A stretch of DNA of 64,000 nt from an uncultured bacterium (GCA_963844965.1 CAWJQC010000006.1:58014-122013); one strand, 5' to 3'; shown: positions 3,080 to 59,868, counted from the first letter of the stretch. Numbers and translations: made by a program. Notes: generated by a model from the letters alone, not told the origin.

Positions 3080-3646
3080 TCACCCCCCGACCCCGAAAAT
3101 CGCCTGGATAAGGCTGACCACGCCTTTCGCCGCGAGAACCGCCACAAAACCGATGGCCGCGTAAAGAATCGTGTTCCTGCCGTTCTTGAACTTTTCCGGA
3201 TTGCCGCCGGCGGTTATTATCTGGAATCCGCCGTAAAGAACCATAATGGCGACTATGGGAACGGCTATCGTGATCAAAAGGTCAATGATCTTATTGGCAC
3301 AATCCGTGATGGTTGAGCACGCGCCCTGGAGAGGATTGGTAAGCGAGCCGCTGAGAGTCACGTTGCTGCCGGGTGATTGACCACTTGGCGACTGACCGCT
3401 GGGTGATTGACCGCTTGGCGACTGACCGCTGGGTGATTGACCGCCAGGCGTGCTCGCAGTCCATTGGCAAGCACCATTACCACCGAAAGCGCCAACACAC
3501 GCACTCTGGGTCGTATAAAGCGTGCAGTTGGCGGACTGACAGTTCGCGCCAGTAGTATCTTGGGTACAAGTACCTCCGCTACACGCAGCAGTGCATGAAG
3601 CGACAGTATAAGAACAGCCACCAGTGCTGCAGTAATATGGCGTCAC
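3080..3646 (-). CDS. Cys-rich protein with (SPSGQ)n repeats and C-terminal pilin-like domain, probably the C-terminal part of one gene with 3643..4806
   Basis: The C-terminus VPIVAIMVLYGGFQIITAGGNPEKFKNGRNTILYAAIGFVAVLAAKGV is a pilin domain. The reading frame stays open upstream of the GTG start (..NTGECVTTSPAGTSGGTCSAV..), continuing the repeat motif of the upstream ORF. Confidence 0.5.
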   Translation of the reverse strand: MTPYYCSTGGCSYTVASCTAACSGGTCTQDTTGANCQSANCTLYTTQSACVGAFGGNGACQWTASTPGGQSPSGQSPSGQSPSGQSPSGQSPGSNVTLSGSLTNPLQGACSTITDCANKIIDLLITIAVPIVAIMVLYGGFQIITAGGNPEKFKNGRNTILYAAIGFVAVLAAKGVVSLIQAIFGVGG

Positions 3647-4806
3647 GGCGCTACACGTGCCGCCGCTGGTGCCAGCAGGCGATGTTGTAACACATTCACC
3701 GGTAGTAGTATTGCAGTAGGGGGCGTTACTGTATGCAGCGGCGCACTGACTGTTGCTGCTACACCCAACGCATGCATTATTAACGCAGATGGGCTGGGTC
3801 TCGACCGTGCATTTGGTGCTATCAGTGCCACAGCCGCTCGGCGCGGTCGTAACACATTCACCGGTAGTAGTATCGCAGTAGGGAGCATTACTATATGCAG
3901 CGGCGCACTGACTATTACTGCTACATGCAGAGCATATATTATTGACGCAGATAGGTGCCGTCTCGCTCGTACAAATACACTACTATCACCACTGCAACTG
4001 GTCGGCGAGGTTGTGACACATTCACCGGTATTAGTATTGCAGTAAGGAGCATTACTATATGCAGCGGCGCACTGACTATTACTGCTACACCCAACGCACG
4101 TGCCACTAGAGCCACAGATGGGCTGGGTCTCGCTCGTGCATTGACTGCTATCGGTGCAGCTACCGCCGCCGCTGCATTGATTGGTGCTCGGCAAGCCGGG
4201 CGCCAGACAGCCCGAAGAACCATACCAGCCGCATCCCGCACTACAGCAGGTAGGTTGATCAATGCAATTACTGCAACTGGATAAGTTACACGAACTGCCG
4301 CCGGTGCTCGCATTGCATACTTGCCCGCCGGCGCAACCACTATCGGAGCTGCAGGAGTTGCCAACGCCGCTACTATTGGCGTTATTTGACAGACAACTGC
4401 CAATCTGGGGGGATGCCACCGCGCAAGTGCAACCGACCCCAGTATAACAATTTCCCGCCGGCGAAGCGGAAGCGCAACTGCAAGTAACCCCATCAGAATT
4501 AGTATTGCATACCTGGCCACCAGCGCAGCCGGAGTCGGTCGTGCAGTTTCCGCCGCCGTTGGATGGGTTGCAAGACACGGAACAATTACTATCGGAGTAA
4601 GCGTTGGTTCCACAGCCTGCTGGATCTAAACAATTACCGGCCAGACAGTCATCGTTCGTCATGCAACTCGAACCGCAGGCTTCATAGAACGTACTGGGAC
4701 AGGCCTGCGCGTGACTTACAGATGGTCGGCCAAAACCGAAAATAAAAGCGGCGATGACCACAAAAGCGAAAATCAGAAGCCGCTTCTTCATAATTTTATT
4801 ATACAT
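3643..4806 (-). CDS. Secreted Cys-rich repeat protein (N-terminal part of the Cys-rich/pilin fusion; frame lost near 3960)
   Basis: Signal peptide MKKRLLIFAFVVIAAFIFGFG, then about 60 Cys in repeated CxxC/GxC motifs. Three DNA tandem repeats of about 160 bp lie at 3691, 3853 and 4017. After about 3960 the translation degenerates (SVFVRARRHLSAS...), as expected for a frameshift inside the third repeat. Confidence 0.5.
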   Translation of the reverse strand: MYNKIMKKRLLIFAFVVIAAFIFGFGRPSVSHAQACPSTFYEACGSSCMTNDDCLAGNCLDPAGCGTNAYSDSNCSVSCNPSNGGGNCTTDSGCAGGQVCNTNSDGVTCSCASASPAGNCYTGVGCTCAVASPQIGSCLSNNANSSGVGNSCSSDSGCAGGQVCNASTGGSSCNLSSCSNCIDQPTCCSAGCGWYGSSGCLAPGLPSTNQCSGGGSCTDSSQCTSETQPICGSSGTCVGCSSNSQCAAAYSNAPYCNTNTGECVTTSPTSCSGDSSVFVRARRHLSASIIYALHVAVIVSAPLHIVMLPTAILLPVNVLRPRRAAVALIAPNARSRPSPSALIMHALGVAATVSAPLHTVTPPTAILLPVNVLQHRLLAPAAARVAP

Positions 4807-6881: not shown

Positions 6882-8204
6882 TTATTTCGTCGCGTGCATC
6901 AGCGCGGTTACCTGGTCCTGCGCCTGGCTCAGGGCGTGCCACGAATCAAGCTTCCCGACAAGGACGCTCTCTATCGCGCCGTTCATAATGCCGTCTATCG
7001 CTTCGTCGTCCGCTTCGTACCACGAACGCGCGGTCAGGGCCTGCTTCGCAAAAATTCCCAGGGTCGGATCGTTTTCGTACGAAGCGATAGAACTGCGAAG
7101 CGCCGGCGGTTCACCGGTGTCGTCCAAATAAGCCTTCGCGGCGTTGGCGTTCGTGGTCGCGTAGATCACAAAATCCCAAGCCCAGCCCGAAACCTTGGAT
7201 TGTTTGGAAACCGCGAGTCCCGTGTACCGAGGGAAATTAACGGCCACATTCGCCCCCGTGGGTTGGGGCATGGGAGCAACGGCGAAATTCAGGAACGGGC
7301 TGCGTCTTTTTATGTCCAACACAGCGCTCATGTAGTCAAAGATCATCGCGGTTTTCCCGTTCACAAAACTGTCAACAGAATTCTGCTGACTGTCGTTCCA
7401 TGTGTAATAAGGAGAAGCGACGTTCGCGAATTGCAGGTAAAAGTTAAAAGCGGAAACGCCGGGATCGGTCCCGTCCTCTCTCGCGGAGGCGAAGGTCGCC
7501 CCATAATTGTCCGGAGTGGTCATGCCGGCGCCGTTTTGCATTATCAAAAGCTCCAATATGTCTGTCGCGGCATCCACGCTTTGCTCCGAACCGCCGATCG
7601 CCGCGGCGGCACGCGTAAGCTGCCGGCTTGAACCGACCGTGCGCAACTGCGGCACGATTTTCAAAAAGTCATCCCAGGTCGCCGGCGGATAAACAATGCC
7701 GGCATTGTCAAAATAACTTTTGTTGTAAATCAAGGCAAGCGTATCCAAATAAAAGGGCAGGGCGTAAACCTGACTGCCGGACGCCGACGCAAAATCCTGC
7801 TCTATCGTGTATGGAAAAAGATTGCGCAACTTCACTATGTCAAATTGGCTCACGGGCGCGGGAAACAGTTTATCTTCCTGCTGCGGCAGTTCGTGGTTGG
7901 TAATTTCCAAAACATCCGGTCCTGTTCCGGCGGCAAGCGCGTTCAAAAGCGAAGTTCTATAGTCCGCGGCGTTGAGCTGCGTGTAATCTATCGTCGCGCC
8001 GGGACGAAGAACTTTATAACCCTCAATAATCTTGTTGAAAATTCCCCTGCTTTCCGTCCCCCATACCGTCAGCTTGAAATCGGTGCTTATTATGGTCGGG
8101 CGCGAATACTTAACGACAAGAACCACGAGCGTTACCGCGATAGCGACGCCGACGACCGTTATAAAGATTTGATTTCGGGAAAGTTTCATCAAAAAAATTT
8201 TCAA
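6882..8204 (-). CDS. Extracellular solute-binding protein (ABC transporter SBP family), membrane-anchored
   Basis: 440 aa with an N-terminal TM anchor and the length and composition of a family-1 sugar SBP. Confidence 0.6.
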   Translation of the reverse strand: MKIFLMKLSRNQIFITVVGVAIAVTLVVLVVKYSRPTIISTDFKLTVWGTESRGIFNKIIEGYKVLRPGATIDYTQLNAADYRTSLLNALAAGTGPDVLEITNHELPQQEDKLFPAPVSQFDIVKLRNLFPYTIEQDFASASGSQVYALPFYLDTLALIYNKSYFDNAGIVYPPATWDDFLKIVPQLRTVGSSRQLTRAAAAIGGSEQSVDAATDILELLIMQNGAGMTTPDNYGATFASAREDGTDPGVSAFNFYLQFANVASPYYTWNDSQQNSVDSFVNGKTAMIFDYMSAVLDIKRRSPFLNFAVAPMPQPTGANVAVNFPRYTGLAVSKQSKVSGWAWDFVIYATTNANAAKAYLDDTGEPPALRSSIASYENDPTLGIFAKQALTARSWYEADDEAIDGIMNGAIESVLVGKLDSWHALSQAQDQVTALMHATK

Positions 8205-8290
8205 TTTCTAATTTTCAATTTTCAATGCTTGAAAATATGGTGCTCGAAATTGTTTGAAAATTGTAAAATTGAAAATTAAAAATTTGAGTT
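8191..8290. repeat. Palindromic (TTTTCAA)n element, copy A
   Basis: aaaaaaattttcaatttctaattttcaattttcaatg ... ttgtaaaattgaaaattaaaaatttgag: inverted arms built from the TTTTCAA/TTGAAAA unit. Confidence 0.5.
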
Positions 8291-10733
8291 ATATAATCAC
8301 TGTTCCCGCCAAACGATCGCCGGCCTTGAGATTCATGATCTTCACTCCTTGCGCCGCGCGGCCGGTAACGCGCACGCTCTCCAGGCTCGTTCTTATCATC
8401 TGGCCTTTTGCCGAGAGAGCGAAAATTTCTTTTTCTTCGCCCGTGACATGCGCCGAAACCAAGGAACCGGTTTTTGGCGTGATCTTCGCCGTCTTTATAC
8501 CCGAACCGCCGCGACGCTGGATCTTGTATTCCTTGAGTCCGGTCTGCTTCGCGAAGCCGTTCTCCATGACGACGAGCAGCCTCAAATCCTTTATCTTGTC
8601 GCCCAATTCCTCAACTTTAATTATATCAAACCCCGCGACAGCGTCTCCTTTTCTCAATCTGACGGCGCGGACGCCGGCCGCGGTCCTACCCATCTCGCGC
8701 ACGTCGCGTTCGTTGAATCTGATAGATTGGCCTAGTTTTGTGGTTAGGATTACCTGGTCTTTGCCGCCCGAGAGGCGCACCCATTTCAGGGAATCGCCTT
8801 TCTTGAGGGCAATAGCGATGATCCCCGTCCGGCGGATATTTTCAAAATCTTCAAGCAACGTCTTCTTTATCAGGCCGTCCTTCGTCGCCATCACCAAAAA
8901 ATTCTTCTCCTTGCCTCTGGTCTTTTTCTCCGAATAGCTTATGAGAGCGCTGATATTCTCGTCCGTGGGGATCTCCAGGAAATTATGGACCGCCCTTCCC
9001 TTGGAAGTGCGGCTCGCGACCGGAATTTCGTGCACTTTTGTCTGAAAAACGCGGCCGCGATCCGTAAAGAAAAGCAGATTGTCGTGCGTATTCGCGCCGA
9101 AGAAATGGAGCAGGAAATCCTCTTCGGCGACCTCCGAACCGATCAGCCCCTTTCCGCCACGGCGCTGCGCGCGGAAGGTGTTCGGCGGCAGTCGCTTGAT
9201 ATAGCCGCCGGCGGAAAAAGTAACTATCACGTCCTCTTCCGGAATTAAATCTTCAACGCTCATGGCTTTGAGCGGAGTCCGCACGACTTGGGTGCGCCTG
9301 TCGTCGCCGAATTTATTTTTCAAATCCGCTACTTCGTCCTTGATAATTTTCAATATCCGCGCCGGGCTTTTCAAAATCAAATTCAAATCTTTTATCAATT
9401 CGCGTTTCTCTTTGAGCTCAGCTTCAATCCTGTGGCGCTCTAACGCCGCCAAACTTTGCAATTTCATCTCCAGGATCGCCGTCGCCTGGATGTCGGATAA
9501 TTTGAAAATTTTGACCAGATTTCGGTGGGCGTCGTCGCGGTCTTTGGACTTTTTGATAGTCGCTATCACGCGGTCAATGGAGTCGAGCGCCTTGACCAGT
9601 CCTTCCAAAATGTGTGCCCGTTCCTCCGCTCTCTTCAAATCAAACTGCGTCCGTCTGCGGACAATCTGTTTCCTGTAATCCACGTAAGCCACGACCAAAT
9701 CTTTAACAGAGAGAAGCTGCGGTTCTATGCCGTTCACGAGAGCGATGACGTTCAGGTGAAAATCTTTCTGCAGATCGGTGTGCTGGTAAAGCTGGTTCAA
9801 AATTTTCTGAGGCGGAACGTCGGACTTAAGCTCAATCACGATGCGCAATCCTTCCCTGTCCGACTCGTCTCGGATATCGCGTATGCCCTCTATCTTCTTG
9901 GCTTCGGCGAACCCCGCGATTTGCTGGATAAGCTCCGATTTGTTGACCTGATAGGGAATTTCCGTGACGACGATATCAAAGTTGCGGTTCTTCCTCTCAA
10001 CTATTTCCGCCCGAGCCCGCGTCGTAATTCCTCCTTTGCCCGAAATGTATGCCTGTTTTATGGCTTTCTCGTCGTAAATTATTCCGCCGGTCGGAAAATC
10101 CGGACCTTTGATAAATTCCATTATGTCCTCACTTGAAGCGTCCGGATTGTCGGCAACATGAAGAATGGCGTCGGAAACTTCGCGGAGATTGTGCGGGGGG
10201 ATGTTAGTAGTCATGCCGACGGCTATTCCAACGCTGCCGTTCAGAAGTAAATTTGGAAGTTTAGCGGGCAAAACTTTCGGCTCCTGCCGCGTTCCGTCAT
10301 AATTCGGTACCCAGTCAACTGTTTCCTTTTCAATATCCAAAAGCACTTCTTCGGAGATCCTTGAAAGCCTGGACTCCGTATAGCGGTAGGCAGCCGGAGG
10401 ATCGCCATCAATTGAACCGAAATTACCCTGCCCCGTGATGAGCGGATAACGCAAAGAAAAATCCTGCGCCATGCGCACTAGGGCATCGTAAACCGACAGG
10501 TCGCCATGCGGGTGATAACGGCCGAGAACGTCGCCAACCACGGTAGCAGATTTCCTATATTTCGCGAGATGGGTGAGGCCGCTGGACCACATGGACCACA
10601 AAATGCGGCGATGCACCGGCTTCAGGCCGTCCCGCACGTCGGGCAAGGCGCGCGCGACTATAACCGACATCGCGTAGTCAAGATATGACTCCCTAAGCTC
10701 TTTTGTTATTTCACGAGGCTCGATGTTTAACAT
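8289..10733 (-). CDS. gyrA: DNA gyrase subunit A
   Basis: 814 aa, [49 protein letters not shown]..., full-length GyrA architecture. Confidence 0.95.
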
Positions 10734-10749
10734 AAGTAAGCAATTCTAC

Positions 10750-10830
10750 GATTTTTAATTTTCAATTTTCAATAAAAATTCATCTACTGAAAATTGCAAA
10801 ATTGAGAATTGAAAATTTTATTGCGGCGGT
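10750..10830. repeat. Palindromic (TTTTCAA)n element, copy B
   Basis: atttttaattttcaattttcaataaaaatt ... gaaaattgcaaaattgagaattgaaaatttta: same family as copy A, on the other side of gyrA. Confidence 0.5.
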
Positions 10831-11228
10831 TTAATAATGTATTCCCTCGGCGCGTTCAGGATATCACCTAAGGCGCGGAGTTTTCCCGCGAAAACTTCGT
10901 AAAGATTGGCCACGGAACTTTTCAGTGTTTGCCAAAAAGACGCGCCGCCCGGAGAAGCCGCTGAATTCTTTTCCGGCAAAACCTGCCCAGCCTGCCCCGA
11001 ATTTTCCTGAGACGAACCGGTCTGCGGTAAGCCGACGGAATCGGTTGGAGGCGCTTGCTCTGAGCTGGCCAAGGGTGGAGCTGACTGCTGGGAGAAAGCG
11101 GCAATGAGATTATTGAAATATGCGAGCCAAACGTATATCACCACAACCATAAGAACGGCGGTTATGACCACAAGCCAGCGCCGTTTTGCCGGTTCCGAAG
11201 CGGATTGAAGTTTTTCCAAAAAATTCAT
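10818..11228 (-). CDS. Hypothetical membrane protein
   Basis: 136 aa with an N-terminal TM helix and a Ser/Gln/Pro-rich tail. Confidence 0.35.
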   Translation of the reverse strand: MNFLEKLQSASEPAKRRWLVVITAVLMVVVIYVWLAYFNNLIAAFSQQSAPPLASSEQAPPTDSVGLPQTGSSQENSGQAGQVLPEKNSAASPGGASFWQTLKSSVANLYEVFAGKLRALGDILNAPREYIIKPPQ

Positions 11229-14142: not shown

Positions 14143-14217
14143 GCCTGGGTAGCTCAGTGGTAGAGCGCAGCCCCGAAGAGGCTGGCGTCCGGTGTTCGAT
14201 TCACCGCCCAGGCACCA
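14143..14217 (+). tRNA. tRNA-Phe (anticodon GAA), CCA encoded, unusual C33
   Basis: GCCTGGG-TA-GCTC-AGTGGT-AGAGC-G-CAGCC-CCGAAGA-GGCTG-GCGTC-CGGTG-TTCGATT-CACCG-CCCAGGC-A-CCA. Confidence 0.7.
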
Positions 14218-14220
14218 AAA

Positions 14221-14252
14221 GAAAAACCCACGTTTAGTGGGTTTTTCTTTTG
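14221..14252. terminator. Rho-independent terminator after tRNA-Phe
   Basis: gaAAAACCCACgtttaGTGGGTTTTTcttttg. Confidence 0.5.
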
Positions 14253-15867: not shown

Positions 15868-15963
15868 CAGTGGCAGAGCGACCGCCTTACACGCGGTAGG
15901 TCGTAGGCTCGCCCCGTAGCAAACCGAAGGTTTTGCTTCGGGGTTCAATCCCTACAGCGCGCA
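15868..15963 (+). other. Second tRNA-Val(UAC)-like copy, 5'-truncated, with a 36-nt hairpin insertion between T-stem and T-loop
   Basis: ..C-AGTGGC-AGAGC-G-ACCGC-CTTACAC-GCGGT-AGGTC-GTAGG-[ctcgccccgtagcaaaccgaaggttttgcttcgggg]-TTCAATC-CCTAC-AGCGCGC-A. No GCGCGCT acceptor 5' strand or D-stem 5' strand lies upstream. It is preceded by a T-arm-like GCAGG-TCCGATT-CCTGC-GTCGCCC-A fragment. Confidence 0.35.
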
Positions 15964-16009
15964 CAAAAACAAAAACGTCCAACTGGGCCGTTTTTATTTT
16001 TGTGCGCTT
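15959..16009. terminator. Long hairpin terminator
   Basis: GCGCACAAAAACAAAAACGtccaactgggcCGTTTTTATTTTTGTGCGC. Confidence 0.5.
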
Positions 16010-20457: not shown

Positions 20458-20771
20458 GGGGATGATCGGCTTCGATAAGGATAAGTCCTGAACTGGCAAG
20501 CCAAGAGCTAACTTGTAAATCTGGCAAAAAATCAATAACTGCCAACTCAAAAGTTGCAGCTCCAGCATTCGCTTACGCGTAACGTTGGACATCGGCTGAT
20601 CCGGGCTTCTTGGGTTAATACCGGTGTTATATAAGGAAGCTCGTTCCGAGTTGACGATTCTACGCTCGGCACTAAACACAGAATCATTTCTGTCTAGTTT
20701 AACTGGACTACGCTTGTAGAAGGTTTAAGCGATTTTATCCTTACACGGCGGTTCAATTCCGCCCATCTCCA
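20458..20771 (+). ncRNA. ssrA: tmRNA (SsrA); predicted tag ANSKVAAPAFAYA
   Basis: 5' GGGGATGATCGGCTTCGATAAGG resembles the tmRNA 5' consensus. An internal tag ORF ..GCC AAC TCA AAA GTT GCA GCT CCA GCA TTC GCT TAC GCG TAA is present. The 3' T-arm GGCGG-TTCAATT-CCGCC plus acceptor CATCTCC-A pairs with the 5' GGGGATG. Confidence 0.8.
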
Positions 20772-20948
20772 CTAAAACAAAAATACTCGCTCCTTGTGAG
20801 CGGGTGTTTTTGTTTCTTGTAAAATGGTCTGGCGGAATTGAACGAGGGGTGGGCCGGAGGGGAAACTCGGTGTCCCCTCCGTGTAGGAAATTACTCAAAA
20901 CCGAGGGTTGTGAGAGAGCGAGTTGCTGTATAGCGACTCGCGACGTGA

Positions 20949-32816: not shown

Positions 32817-32887
32817 GCGGGCGTAGTATAGCGGCAATACGTCACCCTTCCAAGGTGAAGTCGTGGGTTCAACTCCCATCGCCCGCT
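32817..32887 (+). tRNA. tRNA-Gly (anticodon UCC)
   Basis: GCGGGCG-TA-GTAT-AGCGGCAA-TAC-G-TCACC-CTTCCAA-GGTGA-AGTC-GTGGG-TTCAACT-CCCAT-CGCCCGC-T. Confidence 0.7.
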
Positions 32888-33036
32888 CACAAAACGCAAG
32901 CAGTCCTTCTTATGGTGACAGGGCAAGCAACATACGGCGGTTCGACTCCGCTCACCCGCTCAGAAGAAGGGGGTTGGGGGATAATTACCACGCAAACATG
33001 ATTAGGTGCACATTTGAAAACGGCAGTGAGGCCTTC

Positions 33037-33468
33037 ATGCGGCACACCGTAGTAGACACCATCGTGCTTAAGGACGGCAAGGTCCTTTTGGTCAAGAGAG
33101 CAAAAAAATTTCTTGAGGGCGGCAAATGGGCGCTTGTCGGAGGATTTATGGAAAAGAACTAAACTATCAAGGAGGCGGTGGCGCGGGAGGTCCTTGAAGA
33201 GACGGGGTATGAGGTGGGCGGCATTACCCTGTTCCGCATAATCGATAATCCCAATCATCCGGGCGAGGACAGGCAAAATGTTTGTTTTGTCCACTACTGC
33301 AACGCCCTCAAAAAAACCGGCGCGCCGGATTTGGAAAATGATGAACAACGGTGGTTTTCTTTTTCAGAACTGCCGCCCAAAGACGAAATGGCCTTTGATC
33401 ACCTGGAAGATATTTGCCTCTATCGGGAGTACACCGAGAAACCCCTCATTTTACCGAGAATCGGATAA
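33037..33468 (+). pseudogene. NUDIX hydrolase interrupted by an in-frame TAA at the conserved Nudix-box Glu
   Basis: ...GGKWALVGGFMEKN*TIKEAVAREVLEETGYEV: the stop at 33160-33162 sits exactly where GX5-E-X7REUXEEXGU requires Glu (GAA to TAA). The ORF track splits the gene into 32863..33162 and 33178..33468. Confidence 0.55.
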
Positions 33469-34028: not shown

Positions 34029-34340
34029 ATCCGAAATACAGCATGGCTAAAAAATAAGGCCCTTCCGCAAGGGAAGGGACCTATTGAGTGTGGCGCGTTT
34101 GCGCCGAAGAGTTTGCCCGGCAATACGCTGGGCGTATTAGTGCGAACTTTTCAGTTGTCAGTGAGCCTAATTTAATGATAGCCAAACCCGTTAACCCGTC
34201 AAACCCCGCCCTGTGGATAACTTTTTATATCATAAATCAGTCATTAATTAACGAGTTAAAGAGCTAACGAGTTGAAAAACACAATCCAACCAACCCGTGA
34301 ACTCGTTAACGCGTTAACTCATTAATCAAAAATTTATAAC

Positions 34341-43114: not shown

Positions 43115-44655
43115 TGTATAAGGAGGGGGTGCAAAAAAACTTAGCGCGCGTCTATTCAGCTGAACTGGAGGGAATAAAAGCAAAACTCATTGAAGTGGAG
43201 GTGGATTTGAATGTCGGCCTCCACTCTTTTAACATCGTCGGCCTTGCCGATAAGGCACTGAACGAAGCGAAGGAACGCGTCAATTCCGCCTTGAAAAATT
43301 CCGGCATCAAGCCGCCGAACAGAGAGAACAGAAAAATAACCGTGAACCTTGCGCCGGCGGACGTGAAGAAAGCCGGCTCGCAATATGATTTGGCTATCGC
43401 CATTGGCTACCTGCTCGCAACAAAGCAAATCGTGGAATTTGACGCGAAAAATAAGATTTTCTTGGGGGAGCTCGCGCTTGACGGCCGCCTGCGGCCGGTT
43501 AATGGCGCTTTAAATATCGCCGAACTCGCGGAAAAATCGGAATTTGAATATTTGTTTTTGCCGCAACAGAACGCCAACGAAGCCGCCGTCGTAAAGAACG
43601 TGAAGGTAATTCCGCTTGAAACGCTGGAGGACGCGATAGATTTTCTTGAGGAACGCAAATCCATAAAGCCGGTGGATTTCAGTCCGCTCGCTGCCGAGGA
43701 AATTCAGGCGCCGGATTTTTCCGAAATAAAATCGCAGGAGAATGCCAAACGCGCGCTTACGATTGCCGCAGCCGGCGGACACAATCTTCTGATGATCGGG
43801 CCGCCGGGAGTAGGGAAGAGCTTACTCGCCCAAGCAATGATTGGGATTCTGCCCGACCTCGCGCTTCCGGAAGCAATAGAAATCACGAAGATATATAGCG
43901 CCGCGGGACTCAGCCCCGGAGGACTCATGAAACAGCGGCCTTTCCGTTCGCCGCATCAGACGGCATCAATCGTCGCGGTCGTTGGCGGCGGCACGGACCC
44001 GAAACCCGGCGAGATAAGCTTGGCGCACCGCGGCATATTGTTTCTTGACGAACTGCCGGAGTTCCAGAAAAACATACTGGAGGCCCTGCGCCAGCCGATG
44101 GAATCGGGAACTGTGCACGTGGCACGCGCCAAAGGAACACTTGTGTTTCCTGCTAAATTCACGCTTGTCGCCGCGATGAACCCCTGCCCCTGCGGTTTCT
44201 ACGGCGACCCGGAAAAGGAATGTAAATGCACGGCCTACGAAGTAATCCGCTACCAGAAAAAGATCTCCGGGCCGCTTTTGGACAGGATTGACCTGCAAAT
44301 CAAGGTTCCGCGCGTAAAAATCGCGGAACTGCGGGAACGTAAAAATGCTGAACCTCAAAGTCCGAGCATCAAAAAACAAATTGAGCGCGTGCGGAAAATC
44401 CAGGCCGAGCGATTTGCCCGGCTCAAGATACAGACCAACTCCGAAATGAGTTCGCGCCAGGCGGAGGAAATGATTAAATTTGAACCCGGCGCGGAAAAGT
44501 TTTTGGAAACACTGGACCGCTCGCGCCTATCACCCCGCGGCTACTACCGTTTACTAAAAACCGCCCGCACCATCGCGGATCTGGAAAATCAGGAAAAGGT
44601 TTCTGCGGAACATTTGGCCGAGGCGTTTAGCTATCGGCTGAGAGAAGAAGTTTAA
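43093..44655 (+). CDS. YifB/ComM-family Mg-chelatase-like AAA+ ATPase
   Basis: ...LLMIGPPGVGKSLLAQAMIGILPDL...LFLDELPEF... Confidence 0.85.
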   Translation: MQDKQEVVYKEGVQKNLARVYSAELEGIKAKLIEVEVDLNVGLHSFNIVGLADKALNEAKERVNSALKNSGIKPPNRENRKITVNLAPADVKKAGSQYDLAIAIGYLLATKQIVEFDAKNKIFLGELALDGRLRPVNGALNIAELAEKSEFEYLFLPQQNANEAAVVKNVKVIPLETLEDAIDFLEERKSIKPVDFSPLAAEEIQAPDFSEIKSQENAKRALTIAAAGGHNLLMIGPPGVGKSLLAQAMIGILPDLALPEAIEITKIYSAAGLSPGGLMKQRPFRSPHQTASIVAVVGGGTDPKPGEISLAHRGILFLDELPEFQKNILEALRQPMESGTVHVARAKGTLVFPAKFTLVAAMNPCPCGFYGDPEKECKCTAYEVIRYQKKISGPLLDRIDLQIKVPRVKIAELRERKNAEPQSPSIKKQIERVRKIQAERFARLKIQTNSEMSSRQAEEMIKFEPGAEKFLETLDRSRLSPRGYYRLLKTARTIADLENQEKVSAEHLAEAFSYRLREEV

Positions 44656-44755
44656 CTAAACCAACGCGGTTGGCGGCACACTTCCTGGTTTAACCTTGTT
44701 TTATTTGATTTTTTCGCCTTTCTATAGTTATAAACAGTTAATCCACAACAAGGGC

Positions 44756-44783
44756 TTGACACCTGTCGTGCATATGCTAGAAT
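44756..44783 (+). promoter_or_regulatory. Strong sigma70-like promoter (TTGACA-N16-TAGAAT) at the head of the AT-rich island
   Basis: gggcTTGACAcctgtcgtgcatatgcTAGAATc. Confidence 0.45.
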
Positions 44784-44828
44784 CTAAGCAAATAGTCGAA
44801 ATGGGTGTAATAGCAAAATACTAATCAA

Positions 44829-45068
44829 ATGGTGGAAGAAATCAATAAAAACAAGGCGGAAACGCCGCGGGAAAGGTTCGTGAGGTTGGCCACCCAAAGG
44901 ACAAATGAGGTCCTGAAACGGCTGAGGGTCTTAGGCAATTGTTCAAATCGCAGTGCCTACGAGTATGAAGAAAAGGATGTGGAGAAAATATTTGGAGAAA
45001 TTGACAAGAAAGCAAAGGAGGTTAAATCGAAGTTCCAACAATCAAAACATAGGGAATTCAAATTATAG
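44829..45068 (+). CDS. Hypothetical small basic protein (first gene of the island operon)
   Basis: 79 aa; its stop lies 3 nt before the start of the next gene. Confidence 0.4.
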   Translation: MVEEINKNKAETPRERFVRLATQRTNEVLKRLRVLGNCSNRSAYEYEEKDVEKIFGEIDKKAKEVKSKFQQSKHREFKL

Positions 45069-45070
45069 AA

Positions 45071-46954
45071 ATGACGGAATTAATCCAACCTCAAAATCGC
45101 GAGAGGGATTTAAGGGCCGCACTAGATGGTTACCGCGCCCACGTCGAGCATGATGAATGGTTCACAGAAGCATTCCAGAAAGACGTCATTCAAAATAGTT
45201 GGGACGCTAGGGAGGATAAAAAACACGGCCACGGATGGAGCTGCTCAATCTTACTCAATTCAAAAATATTTAATGGCAAGAGGGGGATTGTCATCAGTGA
45301 TGCGGGCACGAAGGGACTGACGGGGAGAATACCGACATCGCAGAATAATTTACTTCAAATTTTGAAGGATGGGCAATTCTCAGATAGACTAGCGTTCTTT
45401 TTGAGTTCACAATGGAGCGAACACGAGGAGGGGGAGGGTGGCTCACGCGGGAGGGGAAAAATGTTGCTTCTGGCGGCTTCTGAAGATTGCGAATTTTATT
45501 TTGATTCTTTAAGATTTGATGACCATCGATGTATTTTTGGACGAGTATTTTTAGACGAAAACAAAGAAATAAAAATCAACTTTGAGGTTGGCGAAAGTGG
45601 CAAAAATGAATTGAAAAAAATTCTGCCATTTCAAAAGCCGCTCGCTCAACCGGGAACGAGAATATTTATCCCCAATCCCCGAGCCGATCTAGAAAAAGGG
45701 TTCAGAAAAAACGCGGTGGCTAAATACGTTATGAGAACGTGGTGGGAAATTTTAGAGAAATATAATGCACAAATAAGTATCGGGGTTGATGACGCCATAG
45801 AAAAAGTAAATCAATGCGAGTGGCTCCCTCCATCAAGAATTGTGGAAAAAGAAAATTTAAAGGAATATCCGCCTATTCCTATTCAAAATAATTTGAAAAT
45901 CAAAAGAATTACGCTTGGTTTTTTAAAAGGTAAAAATATCCCGGACAATTATAAAGGCATTCACCTCCAGCGAGCGGGAATGATTATTGAAAGCGTTAAG
46001 CTATATGACCTAGTTCAAGAAAACTGGAACGACAAAATATATGGCATAGTAGAATTCGAACCAGAACTTGAGGAAGAAATGAAAAATCACGAGGGGGTAG
46101 AGCATTATAATTTCTTTTGGACCCACAACCCTCCAAGGTTTGTAAGGCAGATTTTAAAACAAAAAGTGTTGGAGTTCGCTAGGGAACATCATTTATTAGA
46201 AGAGGGCGCAAAACAAGCCAAAGAAATAAAGGAGGCCGAGAATAATGCAGAAAAAATACTTAATAAACTAGCAAAACAATTAAATCTCAAAGGATTTTCG
46301 AGGAAACGAAAAACGCGAACCACAAAAAAGAGGGAAAAAAATGAGAAAATAAGACTTTCAATAAGAGATTTGGAAATCCCACAATCTGGTAGGTTTGAAT
46401 TCGGCGAGTCGTTGAAGGGCGCTTATGCTGTCCCAATTAGCGAGTACGAAAATCAACTCAAAACACGGATATCGGTATCGATTTACGAAAAAAATACCGG
46501 GAGAAATATCATAAATACTTCTGAAGAGAGACTAATTAGTGTATTCAACAACAACCAAGAAGGGGTGGGCTGGAAAACCGTTACAATTGACAAAGAAAAA
46601 TTTAACAGGGGAGCGTATGTTTTTAAAGCAAAAATGATATCGCTGGAAGAAACGAGTGTCGGGTCCACGGCCGTAGAGAAAGGGGAGGAGCTTTACCACC
46701 CTGTCAGTGGAATATTTTGGGTTGACCAAGATCCGGACGAGGAGGGATTCTTTGATGTACGACGGTCAGACAGGGACGAAAAAGAAAAATTCTTTTGGTG
46801 GAGAAATGAGGGATCTGACAAAGTAGATCACTATGTTTTCTACTGGAATGGCGAACACATGGTTTTCAAAGAAATCAGGAACGATAAAACGTCGCTAGAA
46901 TCTGCGCTAGTTCGATTTGGATCAGTTAGCAGCACTTTCCGTAGCTTTTTCTAA
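45071..46954 (+). CDS. GHKL-type (HATPase_c-like) ATPase N-terminal domain fused to a large uncharacterised C-terminal region
   Basis: Bergerat-fold N box FQKDVIQNSWDARED (compare ELIxNSxDA of MutL/HSP90/MORC) and G1 box VISDAGTKGLTG. The remaining ~450 aa have no recognisable motif. Confidence 0.5.
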   Translation: MTELIQPQNRERDLRAALDGYRAHVEHDEWFTEAFQKDVIQNSWDAREDKKHGHGWSCSILLNSKIFNGKRGIVISDAGTKGLTGRIPTSQNNLLQILKDGQFSDRLAFFLSSQWSEHEEGEGGSRGRGKMLLLAASEDCEFYFDSLRFDDHRCIFGRVFLDENKEIKINFEVGESGKNELKKILPFQKPLAQPGTRIFIPNPRADLEKGFRKNAVAKYVMRTWWEILEKYNAQISIGVDDAIEKVNQCEWLPPSRIVEKENLKEYPPIPIQNNLKIKRITLGFLKGKNIPDNYKGIHLQRAGMIIESVKLYDLVQENWNDKIYGIVEFEPELEEEMKNHEGVEHYNFFWTHNPPRFVRQILKQKVLEFAREHHLLEEGAKQAKEIKEAENNAEKILNKLAKQLNLKGFSRKRKTRTTKKREKNEKIRLSIRDLEIPQSGRFEFGESLKGAYAVPISEYENQLKTRISVSIYEKNTGRNIINTSEERLISVFNNNQEGVGWKTVTIDKEKFNRGAYVFKAKMISLEETSVGSTAVEKGEELYHPVSGIFWVDQDPDEEGFFDVRRSDRDEKEKFFWWRNEGSDKVDHYVFYWNGEHMVFKEIRNDKTSLESALVRFGSVSSTFRSFF

Positions 46955-47050
46955 AGCTAAACAAAACAAAAAGGCTTTTGAAAAAATATTCAAATCGGAC
47001 GAACTACGGCTACAAGATTCTGATGATATTTTAAAGGTCATCGTGGGAAG

Positions 47051-47728
47051 ATGGGGACTATTTATGGCGTCGAAATAGGTATGATGGCGATACTTTTACG
47101 AAAAGATAACGAAAAAATTTATTTTTCAGATAAGGGGCCGGTAACTGAGGAGAAAAAAACGAAAGCCGACACTCTGGATGGAGAATTGAATAGTGGGATA
47201 CAACGATTGTTAAAACTTTTTTTAAAAATGCATCTCATCACAAAGAATGGGAGGAAAAAAGACGCACTCAGGGTTTGGTATGGTTTTGGTAAGTTTCTAT
47301 TAGATTTAGCTAATAAGTATAAAATAATCGGCAGCGGCGACGAAATATATTTCTGGCAGGCAATCTACGATCATCTGCCAAAAGAATTTCAGAAGAATCC
47401 TCCACCAAAAAGATTTCGACAACTATCTAAAAATCAATATAGAAAAGCGGCTATTATGGCTCAATATCCGTGGGATACCATCAAGAAAGTAGGAAGGTGG
47501 GCGGTTTGGAACGACATTCTAGATAATCCCAAAATCCTTAATGACAAACGGATTCTTGATTGGATTGTCCGAAAAGTTATCAAAAACCCCCTCCCTCATA
47601 AAGAGATAAGAAAATTTTTATATGCCGTGAGTACGCGTCTTCGTAAAATCGATACTAGCGTTTTAAGTCTTGAGGAGTTGAAACAAAAACTAGATACAGT
47701 GACATTAACCCCTATTTTAAATTCATAA
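47051..47728 (+). CDS. Hypothetical protein
   Basis: 225 aa, Lys-rich, no recognisable motif. Confidence 0.35.
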   Translation: MGTIYGVEIGMMAILLRKDNEKIYFSDKGPVTEEKKTKADTLDGELNSGIQRLLKLFLKMHLITKNGRKKDALRVWYGFGKFLLDLANKYKIIGSGDEIYFWQAIYDHLPKEFQKNPPPKRFRQLSKNQYRKAAIMAQYPWDTIKKVGRWAVWNDILDNPKILNDKRILDWIVRKVIKNPLPHKEIRKFLYAVSTRLRKIDTSVLSLEELKQKLDTVTLTPILNS

Positions 47729-47737
47729 GCCCGCGTA

Positions 47738-47777
47738 GAATTGAGGACATAATATCCTGAAATTAACGGCTCCGGCG
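47738..47777 (+). repeat. 40-bp direct repeat, copy 1
   Basis: gaattgaggacataatatcctgaaattaacggctccggcg; copy 2 at 49221..49260 differs at 2 positions. Confidence 0.6.
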
Positions 47778-47854
47778 GGTGGAGGCCCTGCCTGCCGGTA
47801 GGCAGGGCTAAACCACACCACTAATTCAGTAACACCCCTTCAGTAACGCCCTGC

Positions 47855-48928
47855 TTATTCGAAGAGAGTAGGATTATTGCGCGGGTCATGGCCCTCAACT
47901 CTGTCTATCATGAATCTTACCGCATCGTTCATGCTAACCGCCTGTAATTTTATTCCCGGGTGTTTCTCGTGAAAGACCCTGAAAATCTCATCGGCAAATG
48001 CCTGACCGATCATCGGAACTTTATCAAAATCAAAAATGATTGACTTGAACTTTTCCAAATTTGTGAGCACCCTTCTTGCTTGGGAACGAGAAACATGGAC
48101 TCCGCTCATGGTGTAGAGTTTCACTTTTATCTCGGTTTTGTCAAAACCATAATCCCCGTCTTTGGTGATATCGGTGTATCTTTTAAAAATGTCATTAAGG
48201 TGCCTATCGGAATCTGTATTGATCTCGAAAGAAACGGATGTCCCGCGTTTGCTTTTTTTACTGCGCGAAACAAATATGTCGCCGATACGATTATTTACAA
48301 CCATCTGGATTCCGAAACTGTCTAAAATGAAAATGTCGGCGGTTTTTGAGGTAAAGAATATGCCCTCACCAGAATGAGCTTTTGGCTGGGTGGTTGTCTT
48401 GCCCTTTAGCAATTCTTGGATGGCCTCCAATTCAGATTTTAATCCTCGCTTTCGCATCACGTTTCGGAATACCCCGATACCAGCATCAATAACCCGAAAC
48501 AGCAACCGCCTGTCTGCGATTTCAACCAGAACTTGTATGTTCTTTGACTCTGAATGTTCTATGGCGTTATTGAGCATTTCTGAGAACGCGTAAGTAAAGA
48601 TACTCCTTATGTTCTCGTGGAGTTTAAGAATCACAGGCAGTCTCTCTTCTATTTCATCTAAAACCCGATGTTCTTCCAGATTTACGTTCTTAAGAGATTT
48701 TTGTATTCTTGTCGGCAATAAATCCAGATGCTCTGTCACATATTGAGGAGAAACGTAAAATGCGCTTCTGGTTGAACCTATTTTCATTAGCTTCCTCGCG
48801 GTAATCAGATTGTTAATCAAAATCTTTGCGTATTGTCTGGAAACCCCAAGAAGCGACACTACGTCCCGTGTCTTAATCTGCTTCTTTATTTCTAAAAGAG
48901 AAAGAATTTTTTGTTCTTGATTGGTCAT
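47855..48928 (-). CDS. wHTH plus anti-sigma-kinase-like GHKL ATPase (RsbW/SpoIIAB-type) plus uncharacterised C-terminal domain
   Basis: N-terminal DVVSLLGVSRQYAKILINNL (HTH); FSEMLNNAIEHSESKNIQVLVEIADRRLLFRVIDAGIGV (N box and G1 box). Confidence 0.5.
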   Translation of the reverse strand: MTNQEQKILSLLEIKKQIKTRDVVSLLGVSRQYAKILINNLITARKLMKIGSTRSAFYVSPQYVTEHLDLLPTRIQKSLKNVNLEEHRVLDEIEERLPVILKLHENIRSIFTYAFSEMLNNAIEHSESKNIQVLVEIADRRLLFRVIDAGIGVFRNVMRKRGLKSELEAIQELLKGKTTTQPKAHSGEGIFFTSKTADIFILDSFGIQMVVNNRIGDIFVSRSKKSKRGTSVSFEINTDSDRHLNDIFKRYTDITKDGDYGFDKTEIKVKLYTMSGVHVSRSQARRVLTNLEKFKSIIFDFDKVPMIGQAFADEIFRVFHEKHPGIKLQAVSMNDAVRFMIDRVEGHDPRNNPTLFE

Positions 48929-49220
48929 GGTTCGGTTAGCTATAAGTTAATTGTAAACCAAATTAAATTCAATTGTCAACTAATTGTAAACTAATGGTTT
49001 TTACCCCAACAAAACCGCCCGAATTGCTGAGATTGCGTCACTGAAAGCTCGGGCAACCGCTGCAAACATTCTTCTGGTTCTGGTTCGACTACGCTCACCA
49101 TCTCGAGCGAAGTCGAGGGACAATAATGCCTGCCTGCCGTGCCTTCGGCAGGTGAACCGGCAGACAGGTCCGCTCATTTCCACCTATATCGGTTTTACTA
49201 TCTTAAACTCCAGCTTGGTT

Positions 49221-59064: not shown

Positions 59065-59868
59065 ATGAAACGACTCGGCCAACATTTCCTGAAAAACAAA
59101 TCGGCACTAGAAAAAATCGCGGCGGCGCTGGAATTAAAATCCGGCGACCTTGTGATCAAGATCGGCGCGGGACGCGGGGAATTGACGGAGGTCGTAGAGC
59201 GTGAAACACGAAACGCGAAACATGATGTAAAAATTATCGCGATTGAAAAGGACGGAGAACTGGCGGAATTTGTGCGAAAGAAACTCACCGCAGACAAAAA
59301 TATTGAGATCGTTACCGGCGACGCCCTAAAAGTTATTCCGCAATTAATTACACAATTGCCCAATTACCCAGCTGCAAGTTACAAACTTGTCGGCAACATT
59401 CCCTATTACATCACGGGGCGCCTTTTACGGATTATCGGCGAGCTTGAAGACAAACCCGAACTCTGCGTCTTTACTTTGCAGAAAGAAGTCGCGGAAAGGA
59501 TCTGCGCGGAGCCGCCGCGCACGAACCGGCTCGCGGCAAGCGTGCAGTTCTGGGCCGAACCGGAAATTATCACATGCGTGCCGCGAGAAAATTTTGAGCC
59601 GCAACCCGGCGTAGATTCCGCCATAATTAGATTAAAAATTAAAAATCAAAAATTAAAAATAGGCGACTCAGAATATTACTGTGCTCTGCGGGCGTTGTTC
59701 GCGCAACCGAGAAAAACAATACTGAACAATTTGGCGACGAGCGACAAGCGACAAGCGACAAGGAAAATCGAGGTAGCGGAAAAACTAAGGAAAATCGGCA
59801 TAAAACCGGATGACAGGCCGCAGGATTTGAGTGTGGACGATATTATCAAAATCGCCAAAAACTTTTGA
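59065..59868 (+). CDS. rsmA: 16S rRNA (adenine1518/1519-N6)-dimethyltransferase RsmA/KsgA
   Basis: MKRLGQHFLKNKSALEKIAAALELKSGDLVIKIGAGRGELTE...VGNIPYYITG... Confidence 0.85.
   Translation: MKRLGQHFLKNKSALEKIAAALELKSGDLVIKIGAGRGELTEVVERETRNAKHDVKIIAIEKDGELAEFVRKKLTADKNIEIVTGDALKVIPQLITQLPNYPAASYKLVGNIPYYITGRLLRIIGELEDKPELCVFTLQKEVAERICAEPPRTNRLAASVQFWAEPEIITCVPRENFEPQPGVDSAIIRLKIKNQKLKIGDSEYYCALRALFAQPRKTILNNLATSDKRQATRKIEVAEKLRKIGIKPDDRPQDLSVDDIIKIAKNF

Follow-up and report, generated by a model that had tools for sequence, protein, structure and literature searches.

Introduction

Correia elements, the miniature transposable elements with inverted repeats (MITEs) of Neisseria, are palindromes of ~100 to 150 nt that occur between genes in many copies, often directly beside a gene, carry outward -35/-10 hexamers, and are co-transcribed as hairpins; their arms are unique inverted repeats, they show a TA target duplication, and they have a defined consensus. 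Rickettsia palindromic elements (RPEs) reportedly occur in spacers and also in frame within proteins, at tolerant loops. The operators of the omega regulator of inc18 plasmids, a ribbon-helix-helix (RHH) protein, and the ParG/ParR iterons consist of contiguous 7- to 8-bp units, in direct or inverted orientation, that overlap promoters. Here we describe palindromic elements made of 7-nt units (heptads) in a 64,000-nt stretch of DNA from an uncultured bacterium (GCA_963844965.1 CAWJQC010000006.1:58014-122013; the window). Two of them, copies A and B, flank the DNA gyrase gene gyrA, and a third array, copy C, lies inside a gene for a UvrD-like helicase. Copies A and B are members of a large family of intergenic spacer elements, ~100 nt in length, that extends over Patescibacteria and includes classes as far apart as 57 to 64% GyrA identity. 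Judging from sequence features, we hold with moderate confidence that the most likely model is that of a heptad microsatellite or MITE-like spacer element whose arms are predicted outward promoters for leaderless genes.

In many bacteria, no long simple repeat is commoner than the heptanucleotide array, for which an origin by slippage in 7-nt steps has been proposed. The elements described here have in common with the heptamers known as long simple sequence repeats (LSSRs; Mrazek 2007) and with the short tandemly repeated repetitive (STRR) sequences of cyanobacteria that tandem 7-nt units are strongly intergenic and that period 7 far exceeds periods 6 and 8. In Beggiatoaceae, TAACTGA repeats end up within a few nucleotides of the start codon, on its upstream side, in genes with no Shine-Dalgarno (SD) motif, and they are almost all direct, with one indirect set in 170 (PMC4679880). 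Unlike the LSSR/STRR heptamers and the TAACTGA repeats, our elements are inverted pairs around a loop of 15 to 40 nt, have a TTTTCAA/TTGAAAA unit, and reside in Patescibacteria. A similar arrangement is that of Xanthomonas, where each genome has 70 to 75 inverted pairs of GGGAATC heptamer arrays, on opposite strands of one intergenic region, whose type is preserved and whose length varies between related genomes (PMC4692102). The likeness is that of two opposite-strand arrays of one heptamer in a single intergenic region. However, the Xanthomonas heptamers are rich in G and their study concerned G-quadruplex formation, whereas ours are AT-rich and have no G runs, which makes a G-quadruplex impossible; moreover, neither a promoter-like reading nor start-codon adjacency was reported for the Xanthomonas pairs, and both features are present here.

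As in MITEs (reviewed in PMC10969869), our elements combine terminal inverted repeats with a short non-coding body, the arms of copies A and B measuring 23 to 32 nt. The arms of Correia elements are not tandem heptads, and the unit of our elements turns over between orthologous sites. Our elements resemble RPEs in that palindromes are present in spacers and also in frame within a protein, here in a loop of uvrD in two other lineages (L206 and L207), but there is no sequence relationship and our elements are made of heptads. With the omega operators they share a run of at least two contiguous 7-bp units, direct or inverted, at a (predicted) promoter; they differ in that the omega unit is (A/T)ATCAC(A/T), and in being chromosomal, present in dozens of copies or more, and split by a central non-repeat loop. 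What sets the elements apart from known heptad and MITE-like repeats is that the arrays are inverted, the unit is promoter-like, start codons are adjacent, and some copies lie in frame.

Patescibacteria, also called the candidate phyla radiation (CPR), comprise a large share of bacterial diversity, and their gene transcription and initiation are hardly understood. We found neither an account of such elements in CPR/Patescibacteria nor a paper containing the sequence in the open-access literature; TTTTCAA-type elements are widespread and apparently undescribed in this group.

Results and Discussion

Inverted heptad arrays fill both gyrA-flanking spacers

Copy A is built of two 32-nt arms (8194-8225 and 8254-8285) that are 81% complementary and enclose a loop of 28 nt (8226-8253). 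Its left arm consists of TTTTCAA-type units and its right arm of TTGAAAA-type units, including one of 8 nt (TTGTAAAA), and Tandem Repeats Finder (TRF) assigned it a period of 7 and 4.3 copies. The element fills the 99-nt spacer between the stop codon of gyrA (8289-8291) and the ATG (8187-8189, minus strand) of a solute-binding-protein (SBP) gene. Copy B has a left arm at 10751-10773, a loop at ~10774-10787, and a right arm at ~10788-10817; the cores of its arms (17 to 19 nt) are 89 to 94% complementary, and it fills the 84-nt spacer between the stop (10818) of a 136-aa open reading frame (ORF) and the ATG of gyrA (10731-10733). With TRF, copy C and all four arms of A and B had period 7 and 3.3 to 4.4 copies. 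The arms of A and B are collinear, have equal orientation relative to gyrA, are 81% identical, and have in common the odd 8-nt unit (TTTTACAA / TTTTGCAA); their loops are unrelated. We thus confirm that inverted (TTTTCAA)n/(TTGAAAA)n arms are present in both spacers, as a first-pass annotation of this DNA had noticed.

That annotation had also placed a copy inside the helicase gene, which proved correct: copy C is translated in frame as ISNFQFSIFKK, just before the conserved VLYRTNAQSR motif of UvrD. It consists of 4.4 heptads (CAATTTC twice and CAATTTT twice; TRF) on a single strand, and we found neither an inverted partner nor a predicted fold for it.

Since intergenic DNA is AT-rich and the window contains many AT-rich islands, we considered whether the motif could be a chance product of composition. 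When up to 2 mismatches were allowed, TTTTCAATTTTCAA had 16 matches in the window, compared with 2.31 ± 1.48 in dinucleotide-preserving shuffles, and 0 of 100 shuffles reached 16; 13 of the 16 matches fell within copies A, B, and C. The other AT-rich islands of the window, many in number, did not contain the motif. Given this excess and these motif-free islands, plain AT-rich composition is ruled out and the enrichment expected of a true motif is borne out; together with at least 120 stereotyped loci elsewhere (see below), these data leave chance a negligible probability.

The family lies preferentially 5' of start codons

An exact-pattern scan of the Joint Genome Institute (JGI) metagenomes with TTTTCAATTTTCAA-N10-40-TTGAAAATT returned at least 120 loci, and the figures given in this section for the family refer to the matches listed. 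Nearly all were long palindromes of CAATnnn/nnnATTG heptads, in which one side carried TTTTCAA, TTTACAA, TTATCAA, and TGATCAA units and the opposite side TTGAAAA, TTGTAAA, TTGATAA, and other units. The median arm was 35 nt, the median loop 29 nt, and the median total length 105 nt, and the G+C of the host contigs ranged from 30 to 59%. Named Patescibacteria loci (L025, L026, L041, and L055) contained the TTTTCAA family as well, and one of its elements was upstream of a gyrA only ~64% identical to any other in the set. The taxonomy of most metagenome contigs carrying the family is unproven.

Classification of 111 members by their flanks (upstream/downstream) gave 40 stop/start, 37 nothing/start, 7 start/start, 8 stop/nothing, and 0 stop/stop cases. 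With symmetric 120-aa thresholds, the flanks that faced a gene start numbered 79 and those that faced a gene end 44, nothing/start cases outnumbered stop/nothing cases by 26 to 5, and 5 divergent spacers compared with 1 convergent spacer. The usual element spanned from the stop codon, which was often inside the first unit, to within 0 to 15 nt of the ATG, and element-to-stop distances in co-directional spacers were mostly -6 to +3 nt. The TTTTCAA family therefore lies preferentially just 5' of start codons and hardly ever between convergent genes.

The downstream genes encoded ATP synthase gamma, histidyl-tRNA synthetase (HisRS), SecY (three times), MurG, a Mur ligase, Ddl, ParB, pyruvate:ferredoxin oxidoreductase (PFOR), transketolase, pilus and secretion proteins, and, in one more case, GyrA, and family placement was unrelated to gene function. 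A special tie to gyrA or to DNA topology, which the first-pass annotation had raised, was not upheld: palindromic arrays were found in 6 of 64 gyrA-flanking spacers (the window left out) and in 36 of 741 others, an enrichment that is not significant, and we rejected a gyrA- or topology-specific site. Recombination sites were likewise dismissed. By inspection, the attC core (RYYYAAC...GTTRRRY) and the 28-bp dif core were absent from copies A and B, and the flanks are conserved, syntenic housekeeping genes. The suggestion of a REP/MITE-like repeat came nearest among the three options of the annotation, in that the elements form a true repeat family. They are not repetitive extragenic palindromic (REP) sequences or bacterial interspersed mosaic elements (BIMEs) of the kind associated with REP-associated tyrosine transposases (RAYTs), since copies A and B and the family have no GTAG/CGTC tags and measure 70 to 130 nt, not 20 to 40 nt.

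Heptad arrays abound in the spacers of relatives and turn over quickly

The top GyrA matches of the window were from Patescibacteria (Paceibacteria, Liptonbacteria, and Ryanbacteria), and the nearest relatives were L001, L002, and L003, with 92%, 89%, and 82% GyrA identity, respectively. These three, 80 gyrA loci of species representatives obtained from a GTDB scan (at most 76% identity), and the window formed a comparison set of 1.47 Mb. TRF was applied to every locus; the flanks of each array were then compared by alignment with its reverse complement, and a score of at least 14 defined an inverted partner. An inverted partner was found for 46 arrays, against 4 in a control in which arrays were reversed but not complemented, and palindromic array elements numbered 38 to 53 in 24 of 86 loci. 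Period 7 prevailed between genes, with 86 arrays (47 per 100 kb) compared with 12 of period 6 and 23 of period 8; its density in coding DNA was 4.9 per 100 kb, which still made it the commonest coding period. Inverted partners accompanied 36 of 120 intergenic period-7 arrays (control, 4) and 26 of 53 arrays of period 8 or 9 (control, 0), whereas arrays in coding DNA showed no excess of inverted partners over the control. The TTTTCAA elements thus belong to a broader pattern, in which heptad arrays, many of which form inverted pairs, are in excess between genes throughout the clade.

At orthologous spacers, unit sequences turn over fast. The spacer between gyrA and the SBP gene was palindromic in four genomes but had a different unit in each, namely TTTTCAA in the window, CGCAGACnnn in L001, AACGAAT in L002, and TTAGCTn in L003. 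In the spacer before gyrA, L001 had an AAGCGTC-type palindrome, L002 a CTATACC array, and L003 only 4 nt; L001 also had an extra AGCGACA palindrome where the equivalent window spacer has 12 nt. Comparison of the gyrA flanks among relatives, which had been suggested as a check, hence supports the recurrence of the architecture but not of the sequence: units differ per genome, and spacers are filled or empty.

Element arms resemble promoters of leaderless genes

We searched positions 8100 to 10900 for sigma-70-like consensus sites, defined by -35 and -10 hexamers 16 to 18 nt apart, the -10 hexamer having A as its second and T as its sixth base. There were 8 such sites, compared with 2.5 ± 1.6 in shuffles, and 5 of the 8 were inside copies A and B, where they point outward on both strands and match 9 to 11 of the 12 positions (Table 1). 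The GAAAAT hexamer that faces the SBP gene is separated from its ATG by 7 nt (TTTTTTG), with no SD motif, and the TAGAAT hexamer of copy B is 9 nt from the ATG of gyrA. On the plus strand, the TATAAT hexamer of copy A overlaps the gyrA stop codon.

Of 777 genes in the gyrA loci (L001-L085) and the window whose upstream region spanned 45 nt or more, 172 had a TANNNT hexamer 6 to 8 nt before the ATG, and in 40 of these 172 a TTG was located exactly 23 nt upstream of the hexamer. SD-like motifs were weak in the general gene set, with a peak of 4 to 7% per position at -13 to -9. Judged by these sequence patterns, leaderless-type promoters appear to be common in these Paceibacteria, and the geometry of the SBP-facing site of copy A fits them. 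Among the matches listed, an SD-like motif preceded just 3% of element-adjacent genes, TTGnnn-N16-18-nAnnnT was present at leaderless distance in 59% of them, compared with 16% of genes generally, and in 26 of 59 cases the start of the last -10-like hexamer fell between -16 and -12.

Table 1. Coordinates of the elements, of the promoter-like sites within them, and of the neighboring genes
Feature	Position	Strand	Setting	Basis or detail
Copy A, complete palindromic heptad element	8194-8285		gyrA stop to SBP gene start	period-7 TRF, arm alignment, folds
Copy B, palindromic heptad element	10751-10817		spacer between 136-aa ORF and gyrA	TRF, arm alignment, folds
Copy C, one-armed heptad array	55071-55101	plus	in frame in variable UvrD loop
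Promoter-like site toward SBP gene	8197-8225	minus	copy A	TTGAAA (8225-8220)-17-GAAAAT (8202-8197), 9/12
Promoter-like site antisense into gyrA 3' end	8269-8297	plus	copy A	TTGAAA-17-TATAAT, 11/12
Fifth promoter-like match	8254-8283	plus	copy A, arm shared with the TATAAT site	TTGAAA-18-AAAAAT, 9/12
Promoter-like site toward gyrA	10743-10772	minus	copy B	TTGAAA (10772-10767)-18-TAGAAT (10748-10743), 10/12
Promoter-like site antisense into 136-aa ORF	10809-10838	plus	copy B	TTGAAA-18-AATAAT, 10/12
gyrA, 814 aa	8289-10733	minus	copies A and B on either side	PF00521, PF03989 (Pfam)
SBP gene, extracellular solute-binding protein	6882-8189	minus	directly downstream of copy A	PF01547
136-aa ORF	10818-11228	minus	stop codon abuts copy B	no Pfam match
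UvrD/PcrA-like helicase gene	53996-55963	plus	host of copy C	Pfam

An element of the family consists of two inverted arrays of about five 7-nt units each, and both strands read (TTGAAAA)n outward from the center, with unit variants such as TTGTAAA, TTGATAA, TTGGAAA, and others. In the model that we favor, each TTTTCAA-family arm would act as an outward sigma-70-type promoter in which the TTG of one unit is 17 nt upstream of a GAAAAT, GATAAT, TAGAAT, or TAAATT hexamer provided by a later unit. As 3 heptads plus 2 nt make 23 nt, we infer that the promoter spacing is kept in any register of a 7-nt array. The terminal hexamer would lie ~6 to 10 nt before the ATG, a distance suited to leaderless or near-leaderless initiation that does not use an SD motif. 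Copy B would then supply the promoter of gyrA and copy A that of the SBP gene, and each would also fire antisense into the 3' end of the upstream gene. The palindrome itself may be a by-product of the way the element forms or an aid to bidirectionality, rather than a required hairpin.

Possible growth and spread of the arrays, and in-frame copies in uvrD

In the proposed mechanism, arrays would arise by 7-nt slippage, which would also homogenize their units, and the palindromes would come from inverted duplication and/or MITE-like spread of copies. Some arrays appear to be seeded by the gene upstream of them. In L001, the array before gyrA (9926-9960) starts with a duplicate of CAATAAG, the heptad that ends the upstream ORF and includes its stop, and in L002 the array after the SBP gene (3920-4040) consists of 14 direct heptads that begin from that gene's own CATGTAA and have no inverted partner. 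A sister family in L062 consisted of three copies of 120 nt that were >90% identical, loops included, within unrelated flanks, and one of these copies was conserved upstream of gyrA in L081. At the spacer before gyrA, the sequence of L003 is CAATAA|ACTTATG; the window contains copy B and a further 14 nt there. A TA target-site duplication is possible: TA flanks the three L062 copies, with boundaries that were chosen after viewing the alignment, whereas an in-frame copy in L206 has no TA flanks. 'TTA' followed the terminal unit in 42% of ends among the matches listed, which is not clearly above background.

UvrD homologs with ~60% identity carry heptad-encoded peptides at the loop that contains copy C (NSQFSISKK, NLQFPIFN, and NFRFPISN). 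The uvrD gene of L206 has a full two-armed palindrome in frame (AATTTTC, AATTATC three times, a loop, TTGAAAA, TTGTAAA, and TTGAAAA twice), whose 90 nt are read as IFNYQLSIINKNEAMVANKVENCKLKIEN, and that of L207 has a full in-frame palindrome of another unit, GAATTAA/GAATAAA. L208 and the window have a single heptad arm at this loop, and the extra residues map to one loop in the UvrD alignment. Because (TTGAAAA)n with n of at least 3 has a TGA in every frame, a right arm is translatable only when it is short or altered, which may explain one-armed copies such as C. We suggest that copy C is a decayed, one-armed, in-frame remnant of a TTTTCAA-like element. Should the elements be what they seem, the in-frame copies in UvrD would be the second natural example, after RPEs, of palindromes translated within essential proteins.

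Promoter function or neutral repeat

Several observations weigh against the model in which the arms are promoters. A phase-shift control for the promoter pattern gave 29 to 61%, which means that the pattern is only loosely positioned relative to the ATG. The terminal heptad was conserved alike on the ATG side (57%) and on the stop side (53%) among the matches listed, which agrees more with a symmetric element than with selection for a single promoter. In the equivalent spacers of L001 and L002, the GC-rich elements are devoid of promoter-like hexamers that face gyrA or the SBP gene, so promoter function cannot explain the architecture generally and accounts at most for the wide spread of the TTTTCAA family. 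The GAAAAT hexamer has no T at -12, the second arm would drive antisense transcription in co-directional spacers, and the predicted promoter activity rests on consensus matches in AT-rich DNA. Arrays that start with a duplicate of the last heptad of the upstream gene argue for in-situ growth rather than insertion, and we found no transposase among the scanned window ORFs, no clear target-site duplication, and no clean empty site. Finally, a BLAST comparison with gyrA-locus proteins matched 39 of 109 metagenome loci at a median identity of 42%, which is weakly informative taxonomically.

The main rival, which we judge rather unlikely, is that of a selfish or neutral repeat produced by slippage and fold-back (template-switch) duplication and/or by small non-autonomous mobile elements, tolerated only in spacers and surface loops, in which promoter-like hexamers are an accident of the TTGAAAA unit. 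Such a repeat would account for a period-7 excess that extends to coding DNA, for unrelated units at orthologous spacers that are filled or empty among relatives, for arrays seeded by the last heptad of the upstream gene, and for the separate homogenization of arms in L001. The dispersed, near-identical L062 copies, the in-frame uvrD copies, and the symmetric conservation of ends are consistent with it as well. However, the heptad vocabulary is constant over contigs with a G+C of 0.3 to 0.59 and over lineages with ~60% GyrA identity, the bias toward the 5' side of genes is strong and convergent spacers are avoided, and the downstream genes have no SD motifs. In addition, these are streamlined genomes with very short spacers, from which useless inserts of 100 nt should be lost.

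Beyond the favored model, one can imagine Patescibacteria-wide, self-generating 'heptad promoter cassettes', or arrays read by a dedicated heptad-binding global regulator; we regard this as a speculative proposal that is doubtful at present. Such cassettes, made of palindromic (TTGAAAA)n-type arrays, would be slippage-proof, bidirectional, and portable promoters of leaderless genes that keep TTG-N17-(G/T)AnAAT in any register, and they would spread or regrow in spacers, swap unit families from site to site, and occasionally be captured in frame within a protein.

Regulator binding and RNA structure

The first-pass annotation had listed a regulator-binding array first among its options, and nothing that we found argues for such an array specifically. 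In this scenario, which we consider improbable, the elements would be operator arrays for an oligomerizing DNA-binding protein, either an RHH regulator of the omega/ParG type with 7- to 8-bp units or a nucleoid-associated protein that targets AATT, and would exert a global, possibly supercoiling-sensitive control over the adjoining promoters, that of gyrA included. The contiguous inverted 7-bp units do overlap promoter-like hexamers beside start codons, in an architecture that, by analogy, recalls the heptad operators of the omega protein. The unit and its orientation are conserved, rather than the pairing of one arm with the other, and an AATT core is common to AT-rich unit classes of many genomes (CAATTTT, CTAATTn). 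Nevertheless, units are wholly different from one element to the next within a genome and from one orthologous spacer to another, and many binders would therefore be needed. No candidate protein was found: no RHH protein was identified beside the elements, and the 136-aa ORF has no Pfam match. There was also no enrichment at topology genes.

The elements might instead form a hairpin in a polycistronic transcript, as a terminator or insulator, as a stem for RNase III processing or stabilization, or as a coupling hairpin that hides the start codon. In the last variant, a ribosome terminating at the abutting stop codon would melt the 5' arm and expose the downstream start. Copy A had RNA fold z scores of -4.0 (minus strand) and -1.9 (plus strand) and a DNA fold z score of about -4, and copy B had RNA fold z scores of -3.0 (minus) and -4.9 (plus) and a weak DNA fold (z of -1.5 to -2.2). 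Folds more stable than those of shuffles, with z from -3 to -5, speak for an RNA hairpin, as do the exact span from stop codon to start codon in co-directional spacers, the U7 run after copy A on the sense strand, and, among the matches listed, three elements located between rplO and secY in the usually co-transcribed spc operon. The T7 run follows the sense-strand stem in copy A only, and not in copy B.

A hairpin function nonetheless has a low probability. Elements are also found in divergent spacers and without an upstream gene, and they are nearly absent from convergent spacers, in which one would expect terminators. Arm complementarity was 0.61 with the own partner and 0.51 with the arms of other family elements, and arm mismatches were balanced between the G·U type (55) and the A·C type (45), both among the matches listed; pairing is thus not element-specific, and mismatches show no asymmetry. 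The better-folding strand was inconsistent among elements, and we rejected a strand-specific RNA structure on these grounds. In L001, each arm is homogenized separately and one A·C mismatch recurs in all four units, as a result of which the antisense strand folds better by 9 to 11 kcal/mol. The conserved property of the family is the unit and its orientation, not arm pairing. An intrinsic terminator was rejected as well, there being no terminator-like match at A or B and stems that are almost pure A-T (A-U in RNA). A known RNA family was also excluded, with no Rfam match at gathering threshold at copies A and B and none at E ≤ 1 in 8100-10900.

Implications

If the promoter model is true, the elements would mark leaderless-gene promoters across many uncultured lineages and account for much of the scarce non-coding DNA in these streamlined genomes. 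They would also provide a concrete case of regulatory DNA made by a mutational process, namely, 7-nt slippage plus inverted duplication. If the elements are neutral, they still record an unusually strong heptad-slippage regime in the Patescibacteria phylum. For annotation, they are a recurring cause of assembly breaks and of over-extended ORF calls, an example being a TTG start at 8204 that extends into copy A.

The gyrA locus and other features of the window

The window has a G+C of ~50%. The genes surrounding gyrA are all on the minus strand and comprise a Lactamase_B_3 gene, the 136-aa ORF, gyrA, the SBP gene, and type IV secretion system (T4SS)-pilin genes. The synteny of the SBP gene with gyrA is kept in L001 to L003, and the 136-aa ORF has an ortholog in L001 and L003. 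Several close GyrA homologs (P0005, P0010, P0015, P0028, P0070, and P0111) are 990 to 1,270 aa long and carry intein domains (PF14890, PF14528); the GyrA of the window has no intein domain.

Two other palindromic arrays are present in the window. The first (316-400) is made of ~9-nt units (ATTCGCAGC / ATGCGAA), is followed by a T-rich run, and overlaps the end of ORF 52-417, which has no Pfam match; it folds with -49.5 kcal/mol on the minus strand and -36.5 kcal/mol on the plus strand. The second (34244-34329) is made of 8-nt units (AACTCGTT) and occupies the convergent spacer between a CBS-domain gene (plus strand) and a 244-aa ORF (minus strand), with folds of -35.1 kcal/mol (minus) and -20.2 kcal/mol (plus). 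A perfect DnaA-box-like TGTGGATAA was found at 34213-34221, with no dnaA nearby. An oriC/DnaA element was rejected: GC skew was uninformative, and this lone box adjoins tyrS and the CBS gene.

Heptad periodicity is also visible within genes of the window. In ksgA/rsmA (59065-59868), there are period-7 stretches of (ATTAAAA)n at 59631-59660 and (GCGACAA)n at 59734-59762. The alignment with the L207 homolog showed no change in length, so that we rejected insertions and attribute these stretches to heptad-periodic codon usage. The uvrD gene has more period-7 arrays at 55613-55668, (CAAGCGA)2.6 and (ACCAGTT)4.7, in its C-terminal variable region, which aligns poorly among homologs. Longer tandem repeats, of 15/30 nt (3371-3444) and of 162 nt in 2.6 copies (3678-4098), lie within two neighboring minus-strand ORFs, the first of which (3080-3646) is T4SS-pilin-like and the second of which (3643-4806) has no Pfam match.

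A transfer-messenger RNA (tmRNA) gene (20458-20774) and eight tRNA genes are encoded in the window. Classical hairpins with an A-tract, a GC stem, and a T-tract adjoin some of these genes (14216-14252, 15959-16007, and 20775-20815), which indicates that the genome also uses ordinary terminator-like hairpins. An island of low GC content (44000-49000; GC of 0.40 to 0.45) contains ORFs of 627 and 225 aa that have no Pfam match and, on the minus strand, a gene (47855-48928) for a protein with HATPase_c and DUF4325 (STAS-like) domains; 4.4 direct repeats of 11 nt (TAATTGTAAAC) are located just upstream of this gene, at 48948-48995. Lastly, a NUDIX hydrolase gene is present as two adjacent ORFs (32863-33162 and 33178-33468), possibly because of a frameshift, a pseudogene, or a sequencing error.

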